In this document: positions 8,596-39,175 of the stretch, piece after piece
How the letters are laid out: each line of letters begins with the position of its first letter
Numbering within the stretch: the first letter of the stretch is position 1
NCBI GenBank assembly: GCA_030390025.1
Contig: CM059431.1
Span: forward strand, 128,776,001-128,840,000
Length of the DNA stretch: 64,000 bases
Reading direction: 5' to 3'
Source: Squalus acanthias
Lineage: Eukaryota
Notes under the pieces: model-generated
The model's database searches: none
What the model saw: the letters and a program-made list of their open reading frames with translations, nothing else
What the model was told of the DNA's origin: nothing
Translations under genes and position numbers: made by a program

Positions 8596-8745
8596 TGTAA
8601 AATTCGCAATTATCGCGATTCGAAATAACGAGACAAAGCAGATTCGTTTCACCAGCTTTATTTCAACGAAATGCTGTCATGATTAAACAGAAATGAGAAG
8701 TCGCACAACACCAGGCTATAGTCCAACAGATTTATTTAATTTTAC

Positions 8746-8776
8746 AAGCTTTCGGAGCTGTCGCTCCTTCTTCAGG
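8746..8776 (-). ncRNA. Minimal hammerhead ribozyme motif (inverted pLTR copy)
   Basis: Reverse complement reads CCTGAAGA-A-GGAGC-GACA-GCTCC-GAAA-GCTT. Confidence 0.75.
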
Positions 8777-8946
8777 TAGGGTAGCTGTGAGAGAATCTCC
8801 CAGAATTCACAATATAAACACAGAAAAAATGTATTCAAATCAAAATCAAATCAAAACAACGCAACGCCATCCACGCTCTCAAGACCAACCGCAACATCGT
8901 CATCAAACCAGCGGACAAAGGAGGAGCCATCGTTATACAGAACAGA

Positions 8947-10706
8947 ATGGACTATTGCAAAGAAGCATACCGACAACTGGACAACCAGGAACACTACAGA
9001 CAGCTACCCGCAGATCCGACCAAAGAACACACCCGCCAACTCAATAGACTGATCAAGACCTTCGATCCAGACCTTCAAAACATCCTACGCGCTCTCATCC
9101 CACGTACTCCCCGCGTAGGAGACTTTTACTGCCTCCCAAAGATACACAAAGCCAACACACCCAGACGTCCTATCGTATCAGGCAACGGAACCCTGTGTGA
9201 GAACCTCTCTGGGTACGTCGAGGGCATCCTGAAACCCATCGTACAGGGAACCCCCAGCTTCTGTCGCGACACTACAGACTTCTTGCAGAAACTCAGCACC
9301 CATGGACCAGTTGAACCAGGAACACTCCTCGTCACGATGGACGTATCGGCACTCTACACCAATATCCCCCACAATGACGGCATCGCTGCGACAGCCTCAG
9401 TACTCAACACCAACAACAGCCAATCTCCGGATGCCATCCTACAACTCATCCGCTTCATCCTTGACCACAATGTCTTCACCTTCGACAACCATTTTTTTAC
9501 CCAAACACACGGAACAGCCATGGGGACCAAATTCGCACCCCAATACGCCAACATCTTCATGCACAAGTTCGAGCAAGACTTCTTCGCTGCACGGGACCTC
9601 CAAACAACGCTGTACACCAGATACATCGACGACATCTTCTTCCTTTGGACCCATGGCGAAGGATCACTGAAAGGACTACACGATAGCATCAACAGGTTCC
9701 ATCCCACCATCAAACTCACCATGGAGTACTCCTCAGAATTGGTTTCATTCTTGGACACACGAATCTCCATCAAAGACGGACGCCTCAGCACTTCACTCTA
9801 CCGCAAGCCCACGGACAACCTCACGATGCTCCACTTCTCCAGCTTCCACCCTAACCACGTTAAAGAAGCCATCCCCTATGGACAAGCCCTGCGAATACAC
9901 AGGATCTGCTCAGACGAGGAGGAACGCGATGGACACCTACGGACACTGAAAGACGCCCTCGTAAGAACGGGATATGACGCTCGACTCGTCGATCGACAGT
10001 TCCGACGGGCCACAGCGAAAAACCGCATAGACCTCCTCAGAAGACGAACACGGGACACAACCAACAGAGTACCCTACGTCGTCCAGTACTTCCCCGGAGC
10101 GGAAAAACTACGCCATGTTCTTCGCAGCCTTCAACATGTCATCGATGACGACGAACACCTTGCTAAGGCCATCCCCATGCCTCCACTACTCGCCTTCAAG
10201 CAGCCGCCTAACCTCAAAAGTACCATCGTTCGCAGCAGATTACCCATCTTTCAGGAGAACAGCAACCACGACACCACACAACCCTGCCACGGCAACCTCT
10301 GCAAGACATGCCAGATCATGGACACAGATACCATCATCACACGTGAGGACACTACCCACCAGGTACATGGTACATACTCATGTGACTCGGCCAACATTGT
10401 CTACCTGATACGTTGCAGTAAAGGATGCGCCAGAGCATGGTACATCGGCGAGACCATGCAGACACTGAGACAACGTATGAACGGACACCGCGCAACAATC
10501 GCCAGGCAGGAGGGTTGCCTCCCAGTCGGGGAACACTTCAGCAGTCAGGGGCATTCAACCTCGGATCTGCGGGTAAGCGTTCTCCAAGGCGGCCTTCAGA
10601 TACACGACAGCGCAAAATCATAGAGCAGAAACTGATAGCCAAGTTCCGCACTCATGAGGATGGCCTCAATCGCGATATCGGGTTCATGTCACGATACAGA
10701 ACGTGA
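8947..10706 (+). pseudogene. Penelope RT + GIY-YIG endonuclease ORF (5'-truncated, one frameshift near 10600)
   Basis: Upstream in-frame IKPADKGG; LPKIHK, RPIVS, MDVSALYTNIP, GTAMG, RYIDD, FLD; C-terminal CxxC, IVYLIRC..WYIGET, GLN. Confidence 0.95.
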
Positions 10707-10938
10707 CTTGACATCATGGCCGGTCTTTCCAGGTTTTTTTTAAAAAAAACTAACACAAGAACCAACACAAATGGAGAGGATATGCAGCCAGCAGGTGTTT
10801 TGACACGTTGGACCCCCTGGGACACATCTCATTGTCTTGGCTGTGCTCTTAGTGTGTCTTTGATGTAGGGAAAGATTTGAATACATTTTTTCTGTGTTTA
10901 TATTGTAAATTCTGGGAGATTCTCTCACAGCTACCCTA

Positions 10939-10969
10939 CCTGAAGAAGGAGCGACAGCTCCGAAAGCTT
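10939..10969 (+). ncRNA. Minimal hammerhead ribozyme motif in Penelope pLTR
   Basis: CUGANGA core (10940-10946), stem II GGAGC/GCTCC, GAAA core, palindromic AAGCTT in place of stem III. Confidence 0.8.
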
Positions 10970-11971
10970 GTAAAATTAAATAAATCTGTTGGACTATAAC
11001 CTGGTGTTGTGCGACTTCTCATTGTTGTCCACCCCAGTCCAATGCCGGCATCTCCACATCATGATTAAACAGGACACAGAAGCCTGTAAAATGGCCGCCG
11101 CGCCTCGTGGCAGAAGCTTCCAGAATTTTCAGTGGGCAGACAAGATGGCGTTCGAATAAACATTTCAGTATAAGATTGGATAATACGCAGCAAACACTGA
11201 TAAAGACAGGATGCAACCTGTCTGCATTCGACACAATAGCAAAGATATAAGTGCTGGAATCATTTTCCATGCACAAGTAAGGACCATTGTACTGGGCAAT
11301 CGAAGGCCCATCCAGATACATCAATACGCAAATTCCCCACGGCTCTACAATGAGAGAGCCATTCTCGGGTGATTAAGTCAGTATTCGAGGAGGCCCCAAA
11401 ACCAGTCAGGGAGACTCCTAGCCGGTTCGACAATGGGGAAAACATTAATGGATAGTTGGCCAGTTTAAGGTGCTACCGAAATCCATTAAAGGAAAGAATC
11501 GCCCCATGCTGGGAGTTTTGTGCACCAGTATTACACAAAGGACAAACATCAAGATTTGAGCGGGAGATAAGGGAACACAGCATTATAACTATAGTGAACA
11601 AATGTCCATCGCTCTCTTGACTGTTTTATCTCGCTGATGACTGCTGAACTTTTATTCTCCTATTCTGATCCTCGGGTATCGCTCTGCTGGACGAGCTGCT
11701 TTCTGTTTTTCTCTGGACTCTGTTGACTATGTTGGGTGGAGCTCGAACGGAACGAGCCGCCTCGACGAAGGCCAGTGACCGGGTGCACCATCCCGAGAGT
11801 CGGTAAACTTTGTCTGGACCCGAAGAGACGAGACGAGATGAGACGAGAAGAAGAGGAGAAGAATCCACGTACCGCCACGGTCAGTAAACCCCGACCGCGC
11901 CCGAAAATACAAGAAAGAACTGCAGCGAAACGAGCCGAGTGCCTCGTTTAAAATTCTCCGAAGTATCACGA

Positions 11972-11980
11972 GTGGTGAGC
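11972..11980 (+). promoter_or_regulatory. Candidate major splice donor inside the LTR (GTG|GTGAGC)
   Basis: Consensus-like donor between the TATA-like box (about 11584) and AATAAA (12186); the same motif is present in the solo LTR. Confidence 0.5.
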
Positions 11981-12185
11981 ATGTTTCCCGATTCTACAAA
12001 TCTAGATTAGTGTAGGTATTGATAGGGGAGGGTGGTTTTATTAAGGATAAATATAATGTGTTCCCCTTTTTACGATGTGCCGTGCGTTCCTCATTACCCT
12101 AGACCAAGTTTTATGAATGTATGTATACTTGTACTGTCATTAATTTGTGCCTATGACATGTACTTCATGATTTTGGACGTTATGC

Positions 12186-12191
12186 AATAAA
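12186..12191 (+). terminator. LTR polyadenylation signal AATAAA (copy at 19581-19586)
   Basis: Canonical hexamer about 235 nt before the LTR end, followed by GT/T-rich sequence. Confidence 0.65.
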
Positions 12192-12428
12192 GATTTCCAT
12201 TTCGTACTATTCAACTGGGTCTAGTTGAGTTTTTCTCTGCATTACTGCTCTCGCACCTAAGTCCAGTGTTAGAACCGTAAGGGCGAGTGGGTCGAACCAC
12301 TCACAGGTGCTTATTGCAACAAGGCTGGCCGGAGACCAGAGCAAGCAATAGTATTAGGCAACGAAGGCCTAACCCCGCACCAGCACCGGCTGCGATACAA
12401 GCACCGACGACCGAACCCCTTACAGAAA

Positions 12429-14228
12429 ATGGCGACCACGAAGGGACATTGGCAGCGAGAGAGTAATGTTTTAGACCCTGGTGTGAATAGGCGAAATGTG
12501 ATGGATGAGAGGGTAGCCGACTATGTGTTTGGGAAGGTCAACTTGACCAAAAGGTGGATAAGTGACCTACTGATGGATAAGCGTCCGCTAGACGCAGCCA
12601 TCAAATGGACAGACAGCAAAGAGCATAAGAAGTCAGTAGAGAAAGCGGTCTGGCTGATGTGCTACAAGAAGCAAGTCCAACTTTCGGACCAGGTCATTGT
12701 AGCACAGGCAGCTCAGATCAGGGATTTGGAAGTTGAGATGGAGGAAAAGGTCACGGGAGGACAGAAACTCATCGCATTCTTGAGCGCGTTACATCAGGAA
12801 CGCCAGATAGTAGCCAACCACCATGAGGCTAAAATAGATTACCTAGAGTGTCAGGTCACGGAAGCGAAGTTAAACGAGGGTAGGATTAAAGAACGGTGTG
12901 CCCGCCTAGCTAACCAGATAAGAGCCCAAGAAGAAAGCTTGAAGGGAGTTAGGGCGGCATATAAGATGGCCCTCGAAGATAAGCATGAGGGAGTCGACCA
13001 CAGTGTTTGCCAGAAGGAGATAGGGAACCTAAGAGAGGCCCTGAATAAGGCAAACGGCATGGTGTGCCTAATCAGCCCGTCAGCTCAACAGCCACAGGTG
13101 GGTAGGGAATTCCCAAAATCCCTACCAGACAAAGCAGAGGAGGTATTTGCCACTGCACCCTCCGCGCCACCCAGCTATTCGGCAACCTGGGTAAGGGAGG
13201 AAGTGGTGGAAATAGAAGAGGAGGTCCCTGAGGTAGGACAATCCCCAGAGGTAGTGTCGAAGCCGGGACCGTTGTGTCCGCTGACAGGTCACAAGAGGGG
13301 CCCGAACGGAGCCAATGGGGAGAACGGGGATGTCCTGAACCAGCTTGTGTTGCCTCACAGCTCACACCAGCTGAGAGCAATGATTAGTCATGTACGGAAG
13401 CTGTCTGAGTCAGACGACCCTTCCGTACACTTCAGGGAGGTAGAACAGACCGCAGCAATTAATGGCTGCGACGATGCGGAAAAGACTAAAATGTTGCTGT
13501 TCTCGTTAGATAGCTCGATCCTTCAGTGTCTCTCAGACGAGAGCAAGAGGGGAAATAATACCTATGAGGAGTTAAGGGACGAGGTCCTAGAAGTGTTGGG
13601 GGCGGATGACGAAGGTCCGTTCGTTAGATTGGGTCAGACAGTTGAGATGGAGGGAGAACCCCCGAAGGTTTTCGCCGACAGGCTGTGGCCAGTATACCAG
13701 CGTAGCTGCCCAGGTGCGCCAGCGCGCCACCACCTGGACGGTGCTGGTTTAACTCATTGGCTCAGGTGTTTAGTAGCCAACAGTTTGCCAGCCGTCAGGG
13801 AGCAGGCCAAAGCGTGGTTTGATCCCACTAACCCCGCCACAACAGAGGAGTCGGTCCTAAATCGACTCACCATAGGGTATCGGAACACTAGGAGCACGGG
13901 AGCGCGTCCCCTTAAGGGAAAGGTGCATGAGGCACGGCCCGCAGCCCCGGCTCAAAAGGAGTGGCATCAGGAGGGAAACCGCGCCCCACAGGCCAGTGGT
14001 GCTTGTTACGGGTGCGGAAAGATAGGTCACTGGTATAAAAACTGCAGGAATCCCTGGAAGGATTCCAGGGAAAAAGCTCCCGCAGTCCGAACCCAAGCGC
14101 CTGTCTCTGAGAAAGGAGCTGGTGTGCCTATCCATCCCGATGCGATAGAATCAATGTTAGGAGCCATGCGGTCTCTTATGATTTCGCACGGGGAGGTAGC
14201 AACAGCCCCATACAACCCAGACTTCTGA
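12429..14228 (+). CDS. gag: Gag-like polyprotein: long coiled coil, PSAP-like motif, capsid-like region, CCHC zinc knuckle
   Basis: Uninterrupted 599-aa ORF right after the PBS (true start may be ATG 12501); CYGCGKIGHWYKNC knuckle; PSAPPSY late-domain-like motif. Confidence 0.88.
   Translation: MATTKGHWQRESNVLDPGVNRRNVMDERVADYVFGKVNLTKRWISDLLMDKRPLDAAIKWTDSKEHKKSVEKAVWLMCYKKQVQLSDQVIVAQAAQIRDLEVEMEEKVTGGQKLIAFLSALHQERQIVANHHEAKIDYLECQVTEAKLNEGRIKERCARLANQIRAQEESLKGVRAAYKMALEDKHEGVDHSVCQKEIGNLREALNKANGMVCLISPSAQQPQVGREFPKSLPDKAEEVFATAPSAPPSYSATWVREEVVEIEEEVPEVGQSPEVVSKPGPLCPLTGHKRGPNGANGENGDVLNQLVLPHSSHQLRAMISHVRKLSESDDPSVHFREVEQTAAINGCDDAEKTKMLLFSLDSSILQCLSDESKRGNNTYEELRDEVLEVLGADDEGPFVRLGQTVEMEGEPPKVFADRLWPVYQRSCPGAPARHHLDGAGLTHWLRCLVANSLPAVREQAKAWFDPTNPATTEESVLNRLTIGYRNTRSTGARPLKGKVHEARPAAPAQKEWHQEGNRAPQASGACYGCGKIGHWYKNCRNPWKDSREKAPAVRTQAPVSEKGAGVPIHPDAIESMLGAMRSLMISHGEVATAPYNPDF
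12430..12447 (+). other. Primer binding site complementary to tRNA-Arg 3' end
   Basis: TGGCGACCACGAAGGGAC is the reverse complement of ...GTCCCTTCGTGGTCG-CCA (vertebrate tRNA-Arg(TCG)-type 3' end, from recall); lies 5 nt downstream of the LTR. Confidence 0.85.
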
Positions 14229-15307
14229 CTGGAACCGGTGCAGCCTGCCTACCTGTGTCCCCTTGAAAGACGCGCACAGGAGGGGGTCTCCTGTAAGGAG
14301 GCCAGGTTAAAAGAGCAGGCCTTACGGGAGGAGAACGCCCGTTTAATGGGGAAAGTAGACGGGCTGGAATGGCAGCTTAGAGACATAAAAGCAGCCTACA
14401 GGGTAGCCAGGAGCAGGGAGTATGAGGATTTAAAACAAAATAGAAATCTGCAGCCTCCAGCAGGCGAGATTTCACAGAATGCACAAGCAGGGGCGGTGGC
14501 CTGTCTTAGGGGAGGGGCCAGCCCTGCGAGTGGGGACTCTCAGCCCCAAGCAGGACAGCAGGGCACACAAACCGGTAAAGCAGCCTGCTTGAGGGGAGAG
14601 GACATTCTAGGAAAGTGTAAATCTTTTCTTGGGGTTGGGATTCCGATGAGGAAGAGCTCGAGGAGCTCGACCAAGATAGTGACCCGATCGGAGAGGTGCT
14701 GAGATCGGAGGACGAAAGGTTCGTCCTCGACTCAAGCTTAGGGGAGATAGGGATTGCGAGTGGAGATCCACACAGGGTGGAATCAGAAACTGCAGGTCCC
14801 GAGCCCAGGGGGGCAGAGCTAGGGGAGACGGAGCCAGCGGCTGTGGTAGGACCACAGGTCGTGACGGTGGAAGTCTCGGAACCCGGTCCGTCAGCCTTGG
14901 AAGCCTTGCCCTTGGGGGAGGTAGGGATTGCGAGTGGAGGACCACATACTGGGCCAAGTAGGGTGGTACCAGAAACTGCAAATCCCGAGTTCAGGGAGGT
15001 GGAGCCAGGGGAGACGGAGCCAGCGGCTGTGGTGGGACCACAGGCCGCAACGGTGGAAGTCTCGGTACCCGGTCCGTCGGCCCTGGAAATCTTGCCCAAT
15101 GTAGCCCTCCGTAGGTCAAGTCGGACACCCCAGCCCAGGAAGTCATGGTCAAGTCCCCCGTACACCCCCAGGCGTAAGTTCAAGGTCAAGGCAGCCCAGG
15201 GAGATCCCAGTCCCAGCGCAGCAGCGACAGGCTGCGGCAGATCAAAGGAAGGGGTCAGTGCCCTCCCACCGTTGGGAAAAGCTTGTGGCAGCCTTCGCAG
15301 AATTTAG
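14229..15307 (+). pseudogene. Unknown ORF in pol position: Gag-like coiled coil, acidic tandem repeat and basic tail (probable single frameshift near 14630)
   Basis: In frame with gag after TGA. EARLKEQALREENARL..IKAAYRVA resembles Gag EAKLNEGRIKERCARL..VRAAYKMA. No PR, RT, RNase H or IN motifs. Confidence 0.55.
14738..15097 (+). repeat. Two-copy tandem duplication (about 175-185 bp unit)
   Basis: LGE.GIASG.PH...ETA.PE.R..E.GETEPAAVVGPQ..TVEVS.PGPSALE.LP occurs twice. Confidence 0.9.
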
Positions 15308-15592
15308 GTAGGCCACCCTGGGAAAGGGCGGCGCTGTACAGTTTATAAGTTTAGGATAAGGATAAGTTTATAAGTTTAAGTTATAGTTTTATAAGTTTGG
15401 TAAGATTGTAGTTTAATTTTAAAAGTAAGTGGTAAAATGATGGGAGTCAGAGATAGGAATAGTTAAAGTCTATCCAGCATACATGTCGTTATATGTGAGA
15501 CGAGGTCAAGGGACCCGCTCACCCTTCACAAAAGCCAGAGACTCTTGGGAGGCTGGCTACATCATTTTATCTGATCACAGGAACCACGAAAG

Positions 15593-17944
15593 ATGGAACG
15601 GATTCTGCTAGTGCTCGCAGCGATCGGATATGGATTGGCCTATCGGGGCCTTACCAAGGATGTTGTTGTGTTTGGTTGCTCCGGGGACACGGCCCCCATC
15701 ACGACGGATGGGACCGGGAAGCGAAAGGCTGAGGAGACCGCCACCTATTTCCACAAGGGAAGGTGGCCGGGATGGCTGGGAACGAATTCAACGGAATACT
15801 CTAGTGCATCGGGATTTGCCTACAAAGAGACTTCTTTACTGTGCCCCAGAGTGAGGATCATTGCACCCAGAATCAGCGTCACTGTCGGCAAAAGGATTTG
15901 TTTGACATGCAATGGGAAGGTCCCATTGAGCCGATGGTGGTGGTTACGGAAATTGAGCAAGAATATGAGAAATTCCTCGGTCGAGTGGGAGCGGTTGGGT
16001 AACAATACCCATCGGACAATTACGGGGACTAACTGACAATTGAAAGTCTGTTGGGACAAATGGTGGGAACCGGATGAGGGAATATATGTTTGTATGTGGG
16101 GATCGAAGTACGTTTGCACCAAGGGTATATCCATATTTTTCGTAAACCAGTAGCAGGATAACGGGAAAGGGATGAGGTGGGATGTCAGCACCAGGGGGTG
16201 CGGAGCTCCATACTCCCTGATCCCGGTAAACGCCACTGAACTCATCACGCGCCCACGCAAGGCCCCGCCCACGATTCCGGTGGTTTTGGCTCAGGAGGAA
16301 GGGTGCCCTAAAACCACTAAGGGGCCCGGGAATGGTTTGGTATTGGTCCCAACAGACCAGATACTATTTCAGGGGGTACATTACGCGGTGGCCTCGGTGA
16401 TTTTAAATCTCACCAAGGTGCGGTTGCCAGAGTGGTGCCCCAAAGCAACGGAACAATTGTACCAGGTCCTGTTGACAAACATGTTCAGACAATTCTACGA
16501 GTTTGATTTTGCAGAAATTGACAAGACAAGCTTGTACACCACACCACACGAAGTTTTGGGTCAGGTGCGGAGACAAAGGAGGGGCATTGTGAACGATATG
16601 TTCACCGCCTTTAATATAGGAACATCTGTGGTCAACGCTCTAGACAACGTGGAGCTGCAGACCCAGATCAATGGTTTAAAAACACAATTAAAAAGCATCC
16701 TCACAAGAGAAAACAAGGTAGTAGGGTCTGAGTTACAGGAGGACCAGGCCATGACGCTACACTTAAAGGAAATTATAGCAGAGCTGGAGAAGCATGCGAG
16801 AACGGTAAATGCCCTGATTACGGAAGATCGGAATGCATCCGATCAAGCTGCGCAGAACGAGGTGTGCGTACTATACGGGGCGTGGTTACTGGGCGAGGGC
16901 CGCAGTAATTTGGAGGATTTAAAACAAGGTTTGGTCCCATCCTGGATAAGTAACAAACACCTGCAGGCGCTCCACCCTTTTCAGAACGCATTAAGCCCGT
17001 GCCAGCTCAGGCTAGCCTCAGAGGCATACCCAGTCCCCGTGGACTGCGGACGGTCAAACCATACCATCATGGGTATAGTATTACGTATGCCGGTTTTGGG
17101 CGACACAGCAAAGCCTGCCCCGGTGTATCGGGTAGAGAACATTGGTGTCATTCAGGGGGGAGCCCACATTCGCTACGCAGCGGTCCCACCTTACGTCATC
17201 CGCTGGGAGCAAACGATGACAGGTACCAATCTCTCGGGTTGTCGTGGCCGGGGAGCACACATAATCCTGTGTCCCTGGCACTTGAATGCCTTCTTAACAC
17301 CACAATGTGGGTTCAGAACGGCTGGCGCCAAGCCCATGAATTGCACCATGGAGGCAATGACACAAGATCATGTGCCTCCGCAGGTGGCATACATAGGGGG
17401 TGGAACATATTGCGTTACCACTGCAGCGCAACACTACCAGCATGGAAACCGCAGCCGGTGTCCGGTGAGTGACAGCAGTTTCTGTTTTAAACCCAGGGCT
17501 GAAGTTCAAGTGGCACAGCAGCGAATTGTCCCGATCCCTGAACCATCCACTGTTCATCTAACAGTAAAAGAGAATTTCACCGACTTCCAGCGATTCGTCG
17601 CACATTTCGGATACATCATTCCCCCTCTCCCTGAACACCTCACCAAGCTTTTGAAAGCAGTCGCGGTATCGCAAAAACATTTTTACACCCTAGAACAAAA
17701 GACTGTCGAGATAGGGACAGAAATTCTAGACATAGTAATCCCACCGTGGTGGGACGTGTTCACCAATATTGAAGTGCCTTCATGGATCAGAATAGCCTCC
17801 CACATTTTAGTTGTGTGCCAAGTAATAATTGTAGTGTACCTATTGGTCGTGCACTGCAAGAGAGGCAAGTGCCTCACAAAGCAGGAGAACACAGGAGAGT
17901 GGAGAGAACGTTACGTGCGCGTGCACGAGGAAAGCGCCGCGTAA
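15593..17944 (+). pseudogene. env: Envelope glycoprotein: signal peptide, Ig-like domain, class I F-like fusion protein, TM; two in-frame stops (16034 TGA, 16151 TAG)
   Basis: ORFs 15593 and 16172 share a frame. Signal MERILLVLAAIGYGLA; C..W..DEGIYVC; furin site RRQRR/GIVN; heptad repeat; Cys-rich region; TM ILVVCQVIIVVYLLVV; splice acceptor at 15580. Confidence 0.85.
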
Positions 17945-18355
17945 ACGGCCAGGATGACGCCGCTCCATTTTACCATGTGTGTTCTTGTAATTGAAGATAT
18001 GTAACCAAGTTGGGAACTTTGTATTTTAAAAGAGTTGTTTTTGATTATTTTTAACTTTTGTATTTTTAAAATGGTTGTTTGATTATTTTTTTTCCTTGCA
18101 TAATAAAATACATATACAGGTGGTGCGAGAGGCATCGGCCTCTTGCACCTGGAAGACGTATATGCGATGTAAGTTTAAAAGGCAATACTGCCTACGGTTT
18201 TGTCCAAGTTAGATAATGTAATTTTTCCCTGGGAAATGAGGACGGCATGGAGACCCTAGATAGTTTAAGTTAAGGGAGTGTTTGGATGTGGAGAATCGGG
18301 ATAATTTTGCTCACCACCACTTTTAATTGATACGATAAGCGGAGTTATTCGCATC

Positions 18356-18367
18356 AACAGGAGGGAC
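18356..18367 (+). other. Polypurine tract
   Basis: AACAGGAGGGAC immediately before the TG of the 3' LTR. Confidence 0.75.
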
Positions 18368-19819
18368 TGCAAAATTCGCAATTATCGCGATTCGAAATAA
18401 CGAGACAAAGCAGATTCGTTTCACCAGCTTTATTTGAACGAAATGCTGTCATGATTAAACAGGACACAGAAGCCTGTAAAATGGCCGCCGCGCCTCGTGG
18501 CAGAAGCTTCCAGAATTTTCAGTGTGCAGACAAGATGGTGTTCGAATAAACATTTCAGTATAAGATTGGATAATATGCAGCAAACACTGATAAAGACAGG
18601 ATGCAACCTGTCTGCATTCGACACAATAGCAAAGATATAAGTGCTGGAATCATTTTCCATGCACAAGTAAGGACCATTGTAATGGGCCATCGAAGGCCCA
18701 TCCAGATACATCAATACGCAAATTCCCCACGGCTCTACAATGAGAGAGCCATTCTCGGGTGATTAAGTCAGTATTCGAGGAGGCCCCAAAACCAGTCAGG
18801 GAGACTCCTAGCCTTTTTGACAATGGGGAAAACATTAACGGATAGTTGGCCAGTTTAAGGTGCTACCGAAACCCATTAAAGGAAAGAATCGCCCCATGCT
18901 GGGAGTTTTGTGCACCAGTATTACACAAAGGACAAATATCAAGATTTGAGCGGGAGATAAGGGAACACAGCACTATAACTATAGTGAACAAATGTCCATC
19001 ACTCTCTTGACTGTTTTATCTCGCTGATGACTGCTGAACTTTTATTCTCCTATTCTGATCCTCGGGTATCGCTCTGCTGGACGAGCTGCTTTCTGTTTTT
19101 CTCTGGACTCTGTTGACTATGTTGGGTGGAGCTCGAACGGAACGAGCCGCCTCGACGAAGGCCAGTGACCGGGTGCACCATCCCGAGAGTCGATAAACGG
19201 TGTCTGGACCCGAAGGCCCGAAGAGACGAGACGAGATGAGACGAGAAGAAGAGGAGAAGAATCCACGTACCGCCACGGTCAGTAAACCCCGACCGCGCCC
19301 GAAAATACAAGAAAGAACTGCAGCGAAACGAGCCGAGTGCCTCGTTTAAAATTCTCCGAAGTATCACGAGTGGTGAGCATGTTTCCCGAATCTACAAATC
19401 TAGAGTGTAGGTATTGATAGGGGAGGGTGGTTTTATTAAGGATAAATATAATGTGTTCCCCTTTTTACGATGTGCCGTGCGTTCCTCATTACCCTAGACC
19501 AAGTTTTATGAATGTATGTATACTTGTACTGTCATGAATTTGTGCCTATGACATGTACTTCATGATTTTGGACGTTATGCAATAAAGATTTCCATTTCGT
19601 ACTATTCAACCGGGTCTATTTGAGTTTTTCTCTGCATTACTGCTCTCGCACCTAAGTCCAGTGTTAGAACCGTAAGGGCGAGTGGGTCGAACCACTCACA
19701 GGTGCTTATTGCAACAAGGCTGGCCGGAGACCAGAGCAAGCAATAGCATTAGGCAACGAAGGCCTAACCCCACACCAGCACCGTCTGCGATACAAGCACC
19801 GACGCCCGAACCCCTTACA
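18368..19819 (+). repeat. 3' LTR (1452 bp)
   Basis: TGCAAAATTCG...CCCCTTACA followed by TSD CTGT. Confidence 0.95.
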
Positions 19820-38870: not shown

Positions 38871-39175
38871 TAGACCCCCTGTAACTCCACCTCATTGTCT
38901 CAGTTGTATCTTGCTATGTCTTTGATGTGGTGCCTTCCTGGCTGACCTGATTGCCTTTTGTCACACCTCGGCAGATAAACAGTCAGGATGATTAAATGTA
39001 GTCGTCTGCCATTGTAAGTTACACATGCATTGTTCTCTATCTATATATGCTTTGTCGATTTTGTATTTCTTCACTTCACCTGACGAAGGAGCTACGAAAG
39101 CTCCGAAAGCTTGTGATTTCAAATAAAACTGTTGGACTATAACCTGGTGTTGTGCGACTTCTCATTTTTGTCCAA
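38871..39175 (+). mobile_element. Solo Penelope pseudo-LTR fragment
   Basis: 39078-39170 is highly similar to 10938-11030 (TGTTGGACTATAACCTGGTGTTGTGCGACTTCTCATT). Confidence 0.88.
39076..39116 (+). ncRNA. Minimal hammerhead ribozyme motif
   Basis: TCAC-CTGACGA-A-GGAGCT-ACGAA-AGCTCC-GAAA-GCTT-GTGA: stem I TCAC/GTGA and a 6-bp stem II. Confidence 0.82.

Follow-up and report, generated by a model that had tools for sequence, protein, structure and literature searches.

A probable immunoglobulin-like module at the N-terminus of an envelope protein with F-type features in an endogenous retrovirus family of cartilaginous fishes

Paramyxoviruses divide the work of cell entry between two glycoproteins, with attachment residing on HN, H or G and fusion on F, so that F depends upon a separate attachment protein. 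In the F topology, a short N-terminal subunit is followed by a furin-type cleavage site and the fusion peptide; beyond these, a large Cys-rich region separates heptad region A from heptad region B, and the membrane anchor comes last. In gamma-type retroviral Env proteins, the receptor-binding domain is built around a beta-sandwich core, as seen in the structure of the Friend murine leukemia virus domain. Among retroviral elements, the Env of lokiretroviruses shows similarity to the F family PF00523 at an E-value of 2.2e-7, and the accessible part of that report names no receptor-binding part in this Env (Wang and Han, 2021; PMC7947760). Here we describe an env gene located at positions 15593-17944 of a 64,000-nucleotide stretch of the spiny dogfish (Squalus acanthias) genome (assembly GCA_030390025.1, contig CM059431.1, positions 128,776,001 to 128,840,000), hereafter the window; it and all features located below lie on the forward strand. 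The element carrying this gene is a decayed, pol-less copy, with the order gag-spacer-env, of an abundant retrovirus-like endogenous retrovirus (ERV) family of cartilaginous fishes. Taken as a whole, the gene probably encodes a single class I fusion precursor with an integral immunoglobulin (Ig)-like module, for which we infer a role in receptor binding.

Translation of the window reveals a single env frame, 783 codons long before its terminal stop and interrupted at two places only, namely by a TGA at 16034-16036 (codon 148), inside the Ig-like domain, and by a TAG at 16151-16153 (codon 187), near its C-terminal edge. The list of open reading frames (ORFs) divides this frame into 15593-16036 and 16172-17944. 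To follow the frame in related copies, the 3.7-Gb genome of the same species was searched at the DNA level; of 3145 first-look candidates 40 were scored, and 30 loci were extracted, comprising the window copy and 29 siblings that are 96-98% identical to it over the compared env DNA. Every one of the 29 siblings carries a sense codon at both stop positions, and the stops are therefore private damage of the window copy rather than a gene boundary. The first 203 codons are free of stops in 22 of the 29 siblings, and all 769 compared codons are free of them in five, one of which lacks the ATG. Accordingly, env is certainly one gene and not two. An earlier note on this DNA, made from the letters of the window, had claimed that the two ORFs are a single frame split by the TGA and the TAG, and the 783-codon frame together with the siblings bears this out; conservation of the stops among siblings, which that note had named as the sign of two separate genes, was found in none of the 29.

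The Ig-like domain occupies approximately residues 89-190 (15857-16162) and is delimited by Pfam, by a structural model, by ESM Atlas neighbours and by hhalign. Its landmarks are Cys106, Trp117 and Cys167. The motifs CLTC (residues 103-106; 15899-15910), WWWLRK (residues 115-120) and DEGIYVC (residues 161-167; 16073-16093) lie where the earlier note had placed them, and the 61 residues from Cys106 to Cys167 fall inside the spacing of 55-75 residues between the B-strand and F-strand Cys of the Ig superfamily (IgSF). Ig_3 is the only Pfam family that matches the region; it aligns with residues 92-167, about model positions 6-74 of 78, with an E-value of 0.019 in the window fragment. Across an alignment of 23 natural sequences of the N-terminal region, Ig_3 matches 18 members at E<=1, the best at 6e-4. 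AlphaFold2 supplied with this alignment predicts seven to eight strands, with blocks of predicted local distance difference test (pLDDT) values of 53-63 over model residues 71-160, and a Foldseek comparison with the PDB returns antibody V domains, nanobodies, shark VNARs or IgSF receptors, judged by title, in nearly all of the 50 rows listed. The best structural neighbours of the model are the single-V innate receptors NKp44, TREM-1/2 and TLT-1 and domains of pIgR. A single-sequence AlphaFold2 model of residues 1-260, with a pLDDT of 31, was unusable and was set aside.

Two further comparisons point in the same direction. For residues 85-195, the ESM Atlas gives ig, V-set and I-set clusters as neighbours at 0.93, with 164-176 of 256 features shared, and the ten best family-bearing matches all come from one family or clan. 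The alignment of the env domain was also compared by hhalign with a profile built from 20 host V-set exons of the S. acanthias genome. This comparison places C106 (B strand), W117 (C strand), an E-strand segment and GxYxC (C167) in register with the host profile, and its global score of 17.1 exceeds all 60 of 60 column shuffles (mean 2.2, standard deviation 1.9, maximum 10.2).

A number of observations weigh against an Ig fold and must be set beside these. The Ig_3 scores lie under the Pfam gathering threshold, at 15.9 bits for the window fragment, 14.2 for the first member of the 23-sequence alignment and 14.0 for a relative env, against a cut-off of 30 bits. The alignment-based AlphaFold2 model has a mean pLDDT of 45.2, and no residue reaches 70 or more. 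Foldseek against the PDB yields a best E-value of 0.057 and none at or below 0.001, and the PDB is rich in antibodies, so the Ig rows are inflated; against the viral BFVD library it gives no match at E<=0.001. The hhalign probability is 4.5% in global and 7.8% in local mode, and profile searches of PDB sequences recovered no Ig chain (zero matches with the 23-sequence alignment). Finally, the Asp of the DxGxYxC signature is not conserved: the window lineage and skate have it, but E or S stands in its place elsewhere among the lineages. Individually weak, the four lines of differing kind (Pfam, Foldseek, ESM Atlas and hhalign) nevertheless agree on the Ig clan, and we regard an Ig-like fold of residues ~89-190 as probable on sequence and model evidence; descent of the domain from the IgSF appears somewhat less likely than the fold itself. 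The earlier note's case for a V/I-set domain thus stands in its Cys, Trp and GxYxC landmarks and in a weak agreement on fold, and falls short in its Asp and in the absence of any line over threshold. The checks it had proposed, with HMMER and with AlphaFold/Foldseek, returned Ig_3 and Ig-type neighbours, all with sub-threshold scores (the best E-value being the 6e-4 of Ig_3) and low pLDDT.

Several minor results attach to these searches. The profile of a seven-sequence env alignment recovered only two ferredoxins from the PDB (E 0.42 and 0.79), which we take as chance, and phmmer with a sibling env found no PDB sequence at E<=10. The non-significant top rows from the BFVD library mix herpesvirus and poxvirus IgSF proteins with unrelated phage proteins. 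In the predicted fold, the side of the neighbouring B and E strands that faces outward would carry C103 and C153; given this strand alternation, an extra disulfide may link the two.

Conservation across lineages sets a lower bound on the age of the module. A protein search of the same genome with a 50%-identical relative yielded 5830 first-look candidates, from which 150 were scored and 30 loci were extracted. Among the 150 scored matches, other lineages hold open env frames of up to 870 residues (802-870, stop to stop), five of these frames from other lineages being open over 802-844 codons, and the frame with the Trp-rich motif is present in 28 of the 30 extracted loci. Over the N-terminal part, three env lineages of the S. 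acanthias genome share 46-64% identity with the window lineage, and in every lineage frame long enough to show the junction the N-terminal region is in frame with the F2-like part that follows it. The same arrangement, with the N-terminal region in frame ahead of the fusion part, is found in relatives from skate (75-77% identical) and sawshark (54-67% identical); the protein relatives are labelled as coming from one skate and one sawshark, with one additional EukProt record and one Logan record. C103, C106, W116, W117, C153, G163, Y165 and C167 are invariant in the seven-sequence env alignment, and Cys106 and Cys167 are in addition at least 90% conserved among the 23 sequences of the N-terminal alignment. 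Of the invariant W116 and W117, it is W117 that hhalign pairs with the V-set Trp, in keeping with the C-strand Trp that IgSF domains have about 11-15 residues after the B-strand Cys.

Between lineages, the Ig-like part shows nonsynonymous divergence (dN) of 0.15-0.30 against synonymous divergence (dS) of 2.4 or beyond the correction limit, that is, saturated. This pattern is the same as that of the rest of env, and the Ig-like part is as conserved as the F2-like part. Since dN lies far below the saturated dS, the Ig-like part was coding and constrained while the lineages diverged. As judged from these comparisons, the domain is older than the split of lineages with saturated synonymous sites; it is an ancient, selected component built into the surface subunit, and not a gene of its own or a late acquisition.

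Ahead of the Ig-like domain, the env N-terminus (residues 1-17; 15593-15643) is hydrophobic, with a mean Kyte-Doolittle value of 2.2 over residues 4-17, and likely represents a signal peptide, in keeping with the earlier note. It is followed by a segment of residues 18-88 (15644-15856), recognized by its conservation across relatives and bearing a conserved Cys29, an RWPGWLG-NST motif and Cys84; this segment has pLDDT values below 50 in the alignment-based AlphaFold2 model, and no fold could be assigned to it. Residues 22-88 (15656-15856) are matched by 16 repeated stretches of a 5014-residue protein (P0010) at about 31% identity, with a whole-protein E-value of 1e-21. In one-to-one BLASTP a single repeat reaches no more than some 32-35 bits, the total being raised by the near identity of the repeats to one another; the match is probably repeat-inflated chance, and P0010 was not accepted as a donor or homologue of the env N-terminus.

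The remainder of the frame carries the features of a class I fusion body. An F2-like segment of the surface subunit (residues 191-330; 16163-16582), defined from the sequence and the seven-sequence alignment, ends in the basic site RQRR (residues 327-330; 16571-16582), of which R327, R329 and R330 are invariant in that alignment together with the following G331. Directly after this cleavage site comes a hydrophobic, fusion-peptide-like stretch conserved in the alignment (residues 331-350; 16583-16642), and then a first helical, heptad-like region recognized from sequence and alignment (residues 351-450; 16643-16942); Pfam gives chance matches of helical-bundle type over residues 311-427. A long Cys-rich region (residues 451-660; 16943-17572), identified from the sequence and its ESM Atlas neighbours, contains nine Cys between residues 470 and 631, and a tenth, Cys425, lies inside the first helical region, so that ten Cys fall between residues 425 and 631. 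A membrane-proximal heptad region (residues 661-730; 17573-17782), supported by a peak of a crude heptad scan at residues 656-676, precedes a transmembrane segment at the hydropathy maximum (residues 731-753; 17783-17851) and a short cytoplasmic tail that extends to 17941. The only CxxC in env is the CLTC of the Ig-like domain; no gamma-type CWLC-like motif was seen, and neither CX6CC nor CX6C occurs anywhere in env.

The earlier note had treated this body as F-type. In favour of this assignment, the features from RQRR (327-330) and the hydrophobic peptide (331-350) through the ten Cys and the heptad peak (656-676) to the anchor (731-753) follow the F-type order with 400 residues between fusion peptide and anchor, and the ESM Atlas neighbours of residues 205-735 include two PF00523 clusters, one at 0.91 (198 shared features) and one at 0.89, as well as a PF12259 Baculo_F cluster at 0.91. 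Against it, Pfam matches neither PF00523 nor PF12259 at E<=1 in the window env or in sibling and other-lineage env sequences, neither phmmer nor profile search finds an F chain in the PDB, and homology to F was recovered by no alignment-based method. On this evidence the F-type body is a well-motivated lead and not a demonstrated membership: the order of features and the Atlas neighbours hold, and a match to Pfam or PDB entries does not accompany them.

Four other explanations of the N-terminal region deserve consideration. Reading the locus as two genes, an upstream accessory ORF at 15593-16036 and a shorter env beginning at 16172, draws on the ORF list of the window copy, which has precisely this split, and on an ATG present at 16172. 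This reading retains virtually no probability: it is refuted by the read-through of both stop positions in all 29 siblings and by the frames of 802-844 open codons in other lineages, and annotated skate proteins likewise cross the junction. Only slightly less improbable is the recent capture of a host IgSF exon by this ERV lineage; the earlier note had proposed a captured domain. A paper reports ERV gene capture in its title (PMC4299795), and the host genome is rich in V-set exons, a search of it giving 2831 first-look candidates. No donor emerged, however. An exhaustive phmmer search of 1.84 billion representative sequences gave ten matches, all of them env-like except for one dubious repeat protein, and no host protein at E<=0.001; the closest host IgSF donor for which the earlier note had called was thus not among them. 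Similarity to the host V exons is very weak (4.5% by hhalign), and the domain is present in three lineages with saturated synonymous sites as well as in skate and sawshark relatives. Because no host relative was found among these representatives and the domain is older than those lineages, recent capture is strongly disfavoured and the suggestion of host capture is not sustained.

More serious is the possibility that the N-terminal region is a beta-rich receptor-binding domain lacking IgSF homology, in which the Cys-Trp-Cys spacing and GxYxC arose convergently; other viral attachment domains likewise show an Ig-like topology although they do not descend from the IgSF. None of the Ig scores reaches its threshold, the PDB profile searches are empty of Ig chains, the 1.84 billion representatives hold no non-env relative other than the dubious repeat protein, and about 11 extra residues between the E and F strands, a conserved VCWDKWW stretch, are absent from the host V-set profile. 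Yet four methods of differing kinds point to the Ig clan and none points elsewhere, the landmarks stand in register with the host V-set profile at a score above all 60 shuffles, and Ig_3 covers 68 of its 78 model positions; we therefore consider convergence unlikely, though clearly the strongest of the four competitors. Another explanation accepts the Ig-like domain as real and assigns it to immune evasion or modulation, as a decoy, a shield or a ligand of immune receptors, with attachment located elsewhere in env or not needed. Captured IgSF domains serve large DNA viruses in this manner, the structures closest to the predicted model belong to innate immune receptors of NKp44, TREM and pIgR type, and poxvirus and herpesvirus IgSF proteins appear among the BFVD rows at non-significant E-values. 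In every lineage, however, the domain stands at the N-terminus of the surface subunit, and its conservation, equal to that of the F2-like part, is more in line with a role in entry than with a decoy, which would evolve fast. We judge this explanation rather improbable, below convergence and well above recent capture.

The reading that we prefer, a single class I fusion glycoprotein precursor with an integral Ig-like module, would give the following order along the chain: signal peptide, a Cys-bearing segment of ~70 residues, an Ig-like beta-sandwich (~89-190), the F2-like segment, RQRR and the fusion peptide, and onward through the first helical region, the long Cys-rich region and the second heptad region to the membrane anchor. 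After cleavage at RQRR, the Ig-like module would stay on the F2-like chain, on the membrane-distal side of an F-like trimer. There it may bind a host surface molecule and thereby trigger or position the F-like machine, so that attachment and fusion would be joined in one protein. Receptor binding, like a decoy role, is thus a putative function.

Comparison with described systems places the gene closest to F-type Envs. It shares with the F proteins of paramyxoviruses and pneumoviruses (PF00523) and with the F-type Envs of baculoviruses and errantiviruses (PF12259) the order of features and the approximately 400 residues from fusion peptide to anchor; it differs from them in about 190 extra residues, the Ig-like domain included, between the signal peptide and the F2-like part, and in giving no alignment-based match. 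The N-terminal domain resembles V-type Ig domains (NKp44, TREM-1/2, TLT-1 and pIgR) and Ig_3, with the V-type domains as the best structural neighbours of the model and with the Cys, Trp and GxYxC present. With gamma-type Env it would have in common that, in a class I fusion protein, receptor binding resides at the N-terminus of the surface subunit; it differs in lacking CX6CC and in a transmembrane subunit of about 450 residues, against the 180-200 or so that are typical of gamma-type Env.

A likeness to lokiretroviruses emerges from a related copy elsewhere in the genome (L067+L042), whose gag is 51% identical to the window gag over 317 residues. Here the domains zf-CCHC, RVP, RVT_1, RT_RNaseH_2, PF00075, Integrase_H2C2 and rve occur in this order with env directly after them; the second RNase H (PF00075) scores 30.9 bits with an E-value of 3.5e-7, and pol is split over several frames. 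A degraded RNase H with a second RNase H behind it, together with an env, is the layout of retroviruses and lokiretroviruses in the available parts of two reports (PMC7947760; PMC9040795), and the copy thus resembles lokiretroviruses in possessing gag, protease, reverse transcriptase, the degraded and second RNase H, integrase and env (PMC7947760). The Envs also resemble one another in the signal peptide, a basic R-x-K/R-R site, the fusion peptide, the coiled coil and the anchor, and in PF00523 F0 neighbours in the ESM Atlas. They differ in that the Env described here has no Pfam F match at E<=1, compared with the published 2.2e-7, in that the Env model in the accessible part of PMC7947760 names no extra N-terminal domain, and in that cartilaginous fishes are not among the hosts in its abstract. 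By the gene layout of the related copy the element appears lokiretrovirus-like and may belong to that group. A copy from a second lineage (L066) showed only gag-like and unassigned ORFs next to env, with no pol.

The earlier note knew of no description of such an architecture as a retroviral env, and the literature searched is consistent with this. A full-text literature search returned no title or abstract opening that describes an Ig-bearing env, although supplements may list chondrichthyan elements. The words 'immunoglobulin' and 'cartilaginous' are absent from the text of the lokiretrovirus paper (PMC7947760), 'immunoglobulin' and 'shark' from an errantivirus F-type env preprint, and 'Ig-like' and 'immunoglobulin' from a 2026 review of ERV structure. 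As far as the consulted parts of these sources reach, what is new here is an Ig-like module added to an F-type, lokiretrovirus-like Env in a new host class. In its boldest form, the proposal would be that an undescribed, highly amplified chondrichthyan branch with F-type Env, lokiretrovirus-like in kind, anciently gained a true IgSF domain of the NKp44/TREM/pIgR type in its fusion protein and so acquired a single-chain attachment-plus-fusion glycoprotein, unreported in these sources for retroviral or mononegaviral F-type fusogens; we hold this version to be possible but doubtful.

Were the preferred reading true, a conserved Ig-like module ahead of the F2-like segment would be one way in which an F-type fusogen becomes self-sufficient for entry, and retroviruses with F-type Env would extend to cartilaginous fishes, absent from the host list in the abstract of PMC7947760. 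The module is a small defined domain (~100-190 residues) amenable to expression and structure solution, and the family is abundant, with thousands of first-look candidates in the genome. The results also touch on genome annotation, as public skate and sawshark gene models hold env fragments fused to host genes. Three such sawshark and skate proteins (P0004, P0005 and P0008; labelled Niban 1-like, ZFP2-like and 'uncharacterized') join env fragments to host or repeat sequence and are probably gene-model chimeras across ERV insertions.

The element around env begins its coding part with a gag-like ORF of 599 residues (12429-14228), assigned from Pfam and sequence and carrying one CCHC knuckle. 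Spacer ORFs with internal repeats (14238-15307) stand in the place of pol, and a Pfam scan of the ORFs between gag and env of the window element found no pol domain. Within the spacer, 14737-15097 comprises two units of ~175-187 nucleotides that are 81-86% identical and code for a repeated peptide rich in Pro, Glu and Gly that matches no family. At least 90% of the 1500 nucleotides upstream of env are common to 18 of the 29 siblings, which indicates that the pol-less form (12309-18367 in the window) has itself been amplified. Such pol-less gag-env derivatives bear on the spread of non-autonomous ERVs. On another contig (C3, 64287249-64320138), six matches follow one another head to tail at intervals of about 6.4 kb, an arrangement suggestive of the element in tandem array.

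Self-comparison of the window identifies long direct repeats on either side of the coding part, a 5' repeat at 11059-12424 (long terminal repeat, LTR, plus leader) and a 3' repeat (LTR) at 18368-19819; between 11059-12424 and 18449-19819, 1339 of 1363 aligned bases are identical. The first 95 nucleotides of the 5' repeat are found at 8596-8690, cut off by an insertion, and have their counterpart at 18368-18462. The 3' repeat (19704-19819) shows no plausible LTR end and matches the leader to within five nucleotides of the gag ATG (12424 in the 5' copy). The reach of the repeat to the gag ATG could mean either an unusually long LTR that leaves no room for a primer-binding site or a truncated tandem unit. 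The 2.3-kb insertion in the 5' repeat (8692-11023) has inverted termini of 150 bp (8692-8841 and 10874-11023) that are 98.7% identical and carries an ORF of 558 residues (8947-10623) with a weak RVT_1 match (E 4.8e-9). Approximately 14 bases (18449-18462 in the 3' copy) are duplicated on either side of the insertion, and a fragment related to it is present at 39078-39174. Upstream of the element, an unrelated ORF of 170 residues at 6143-6655 matches RVT_1 with an E-value of 1.7e-20.

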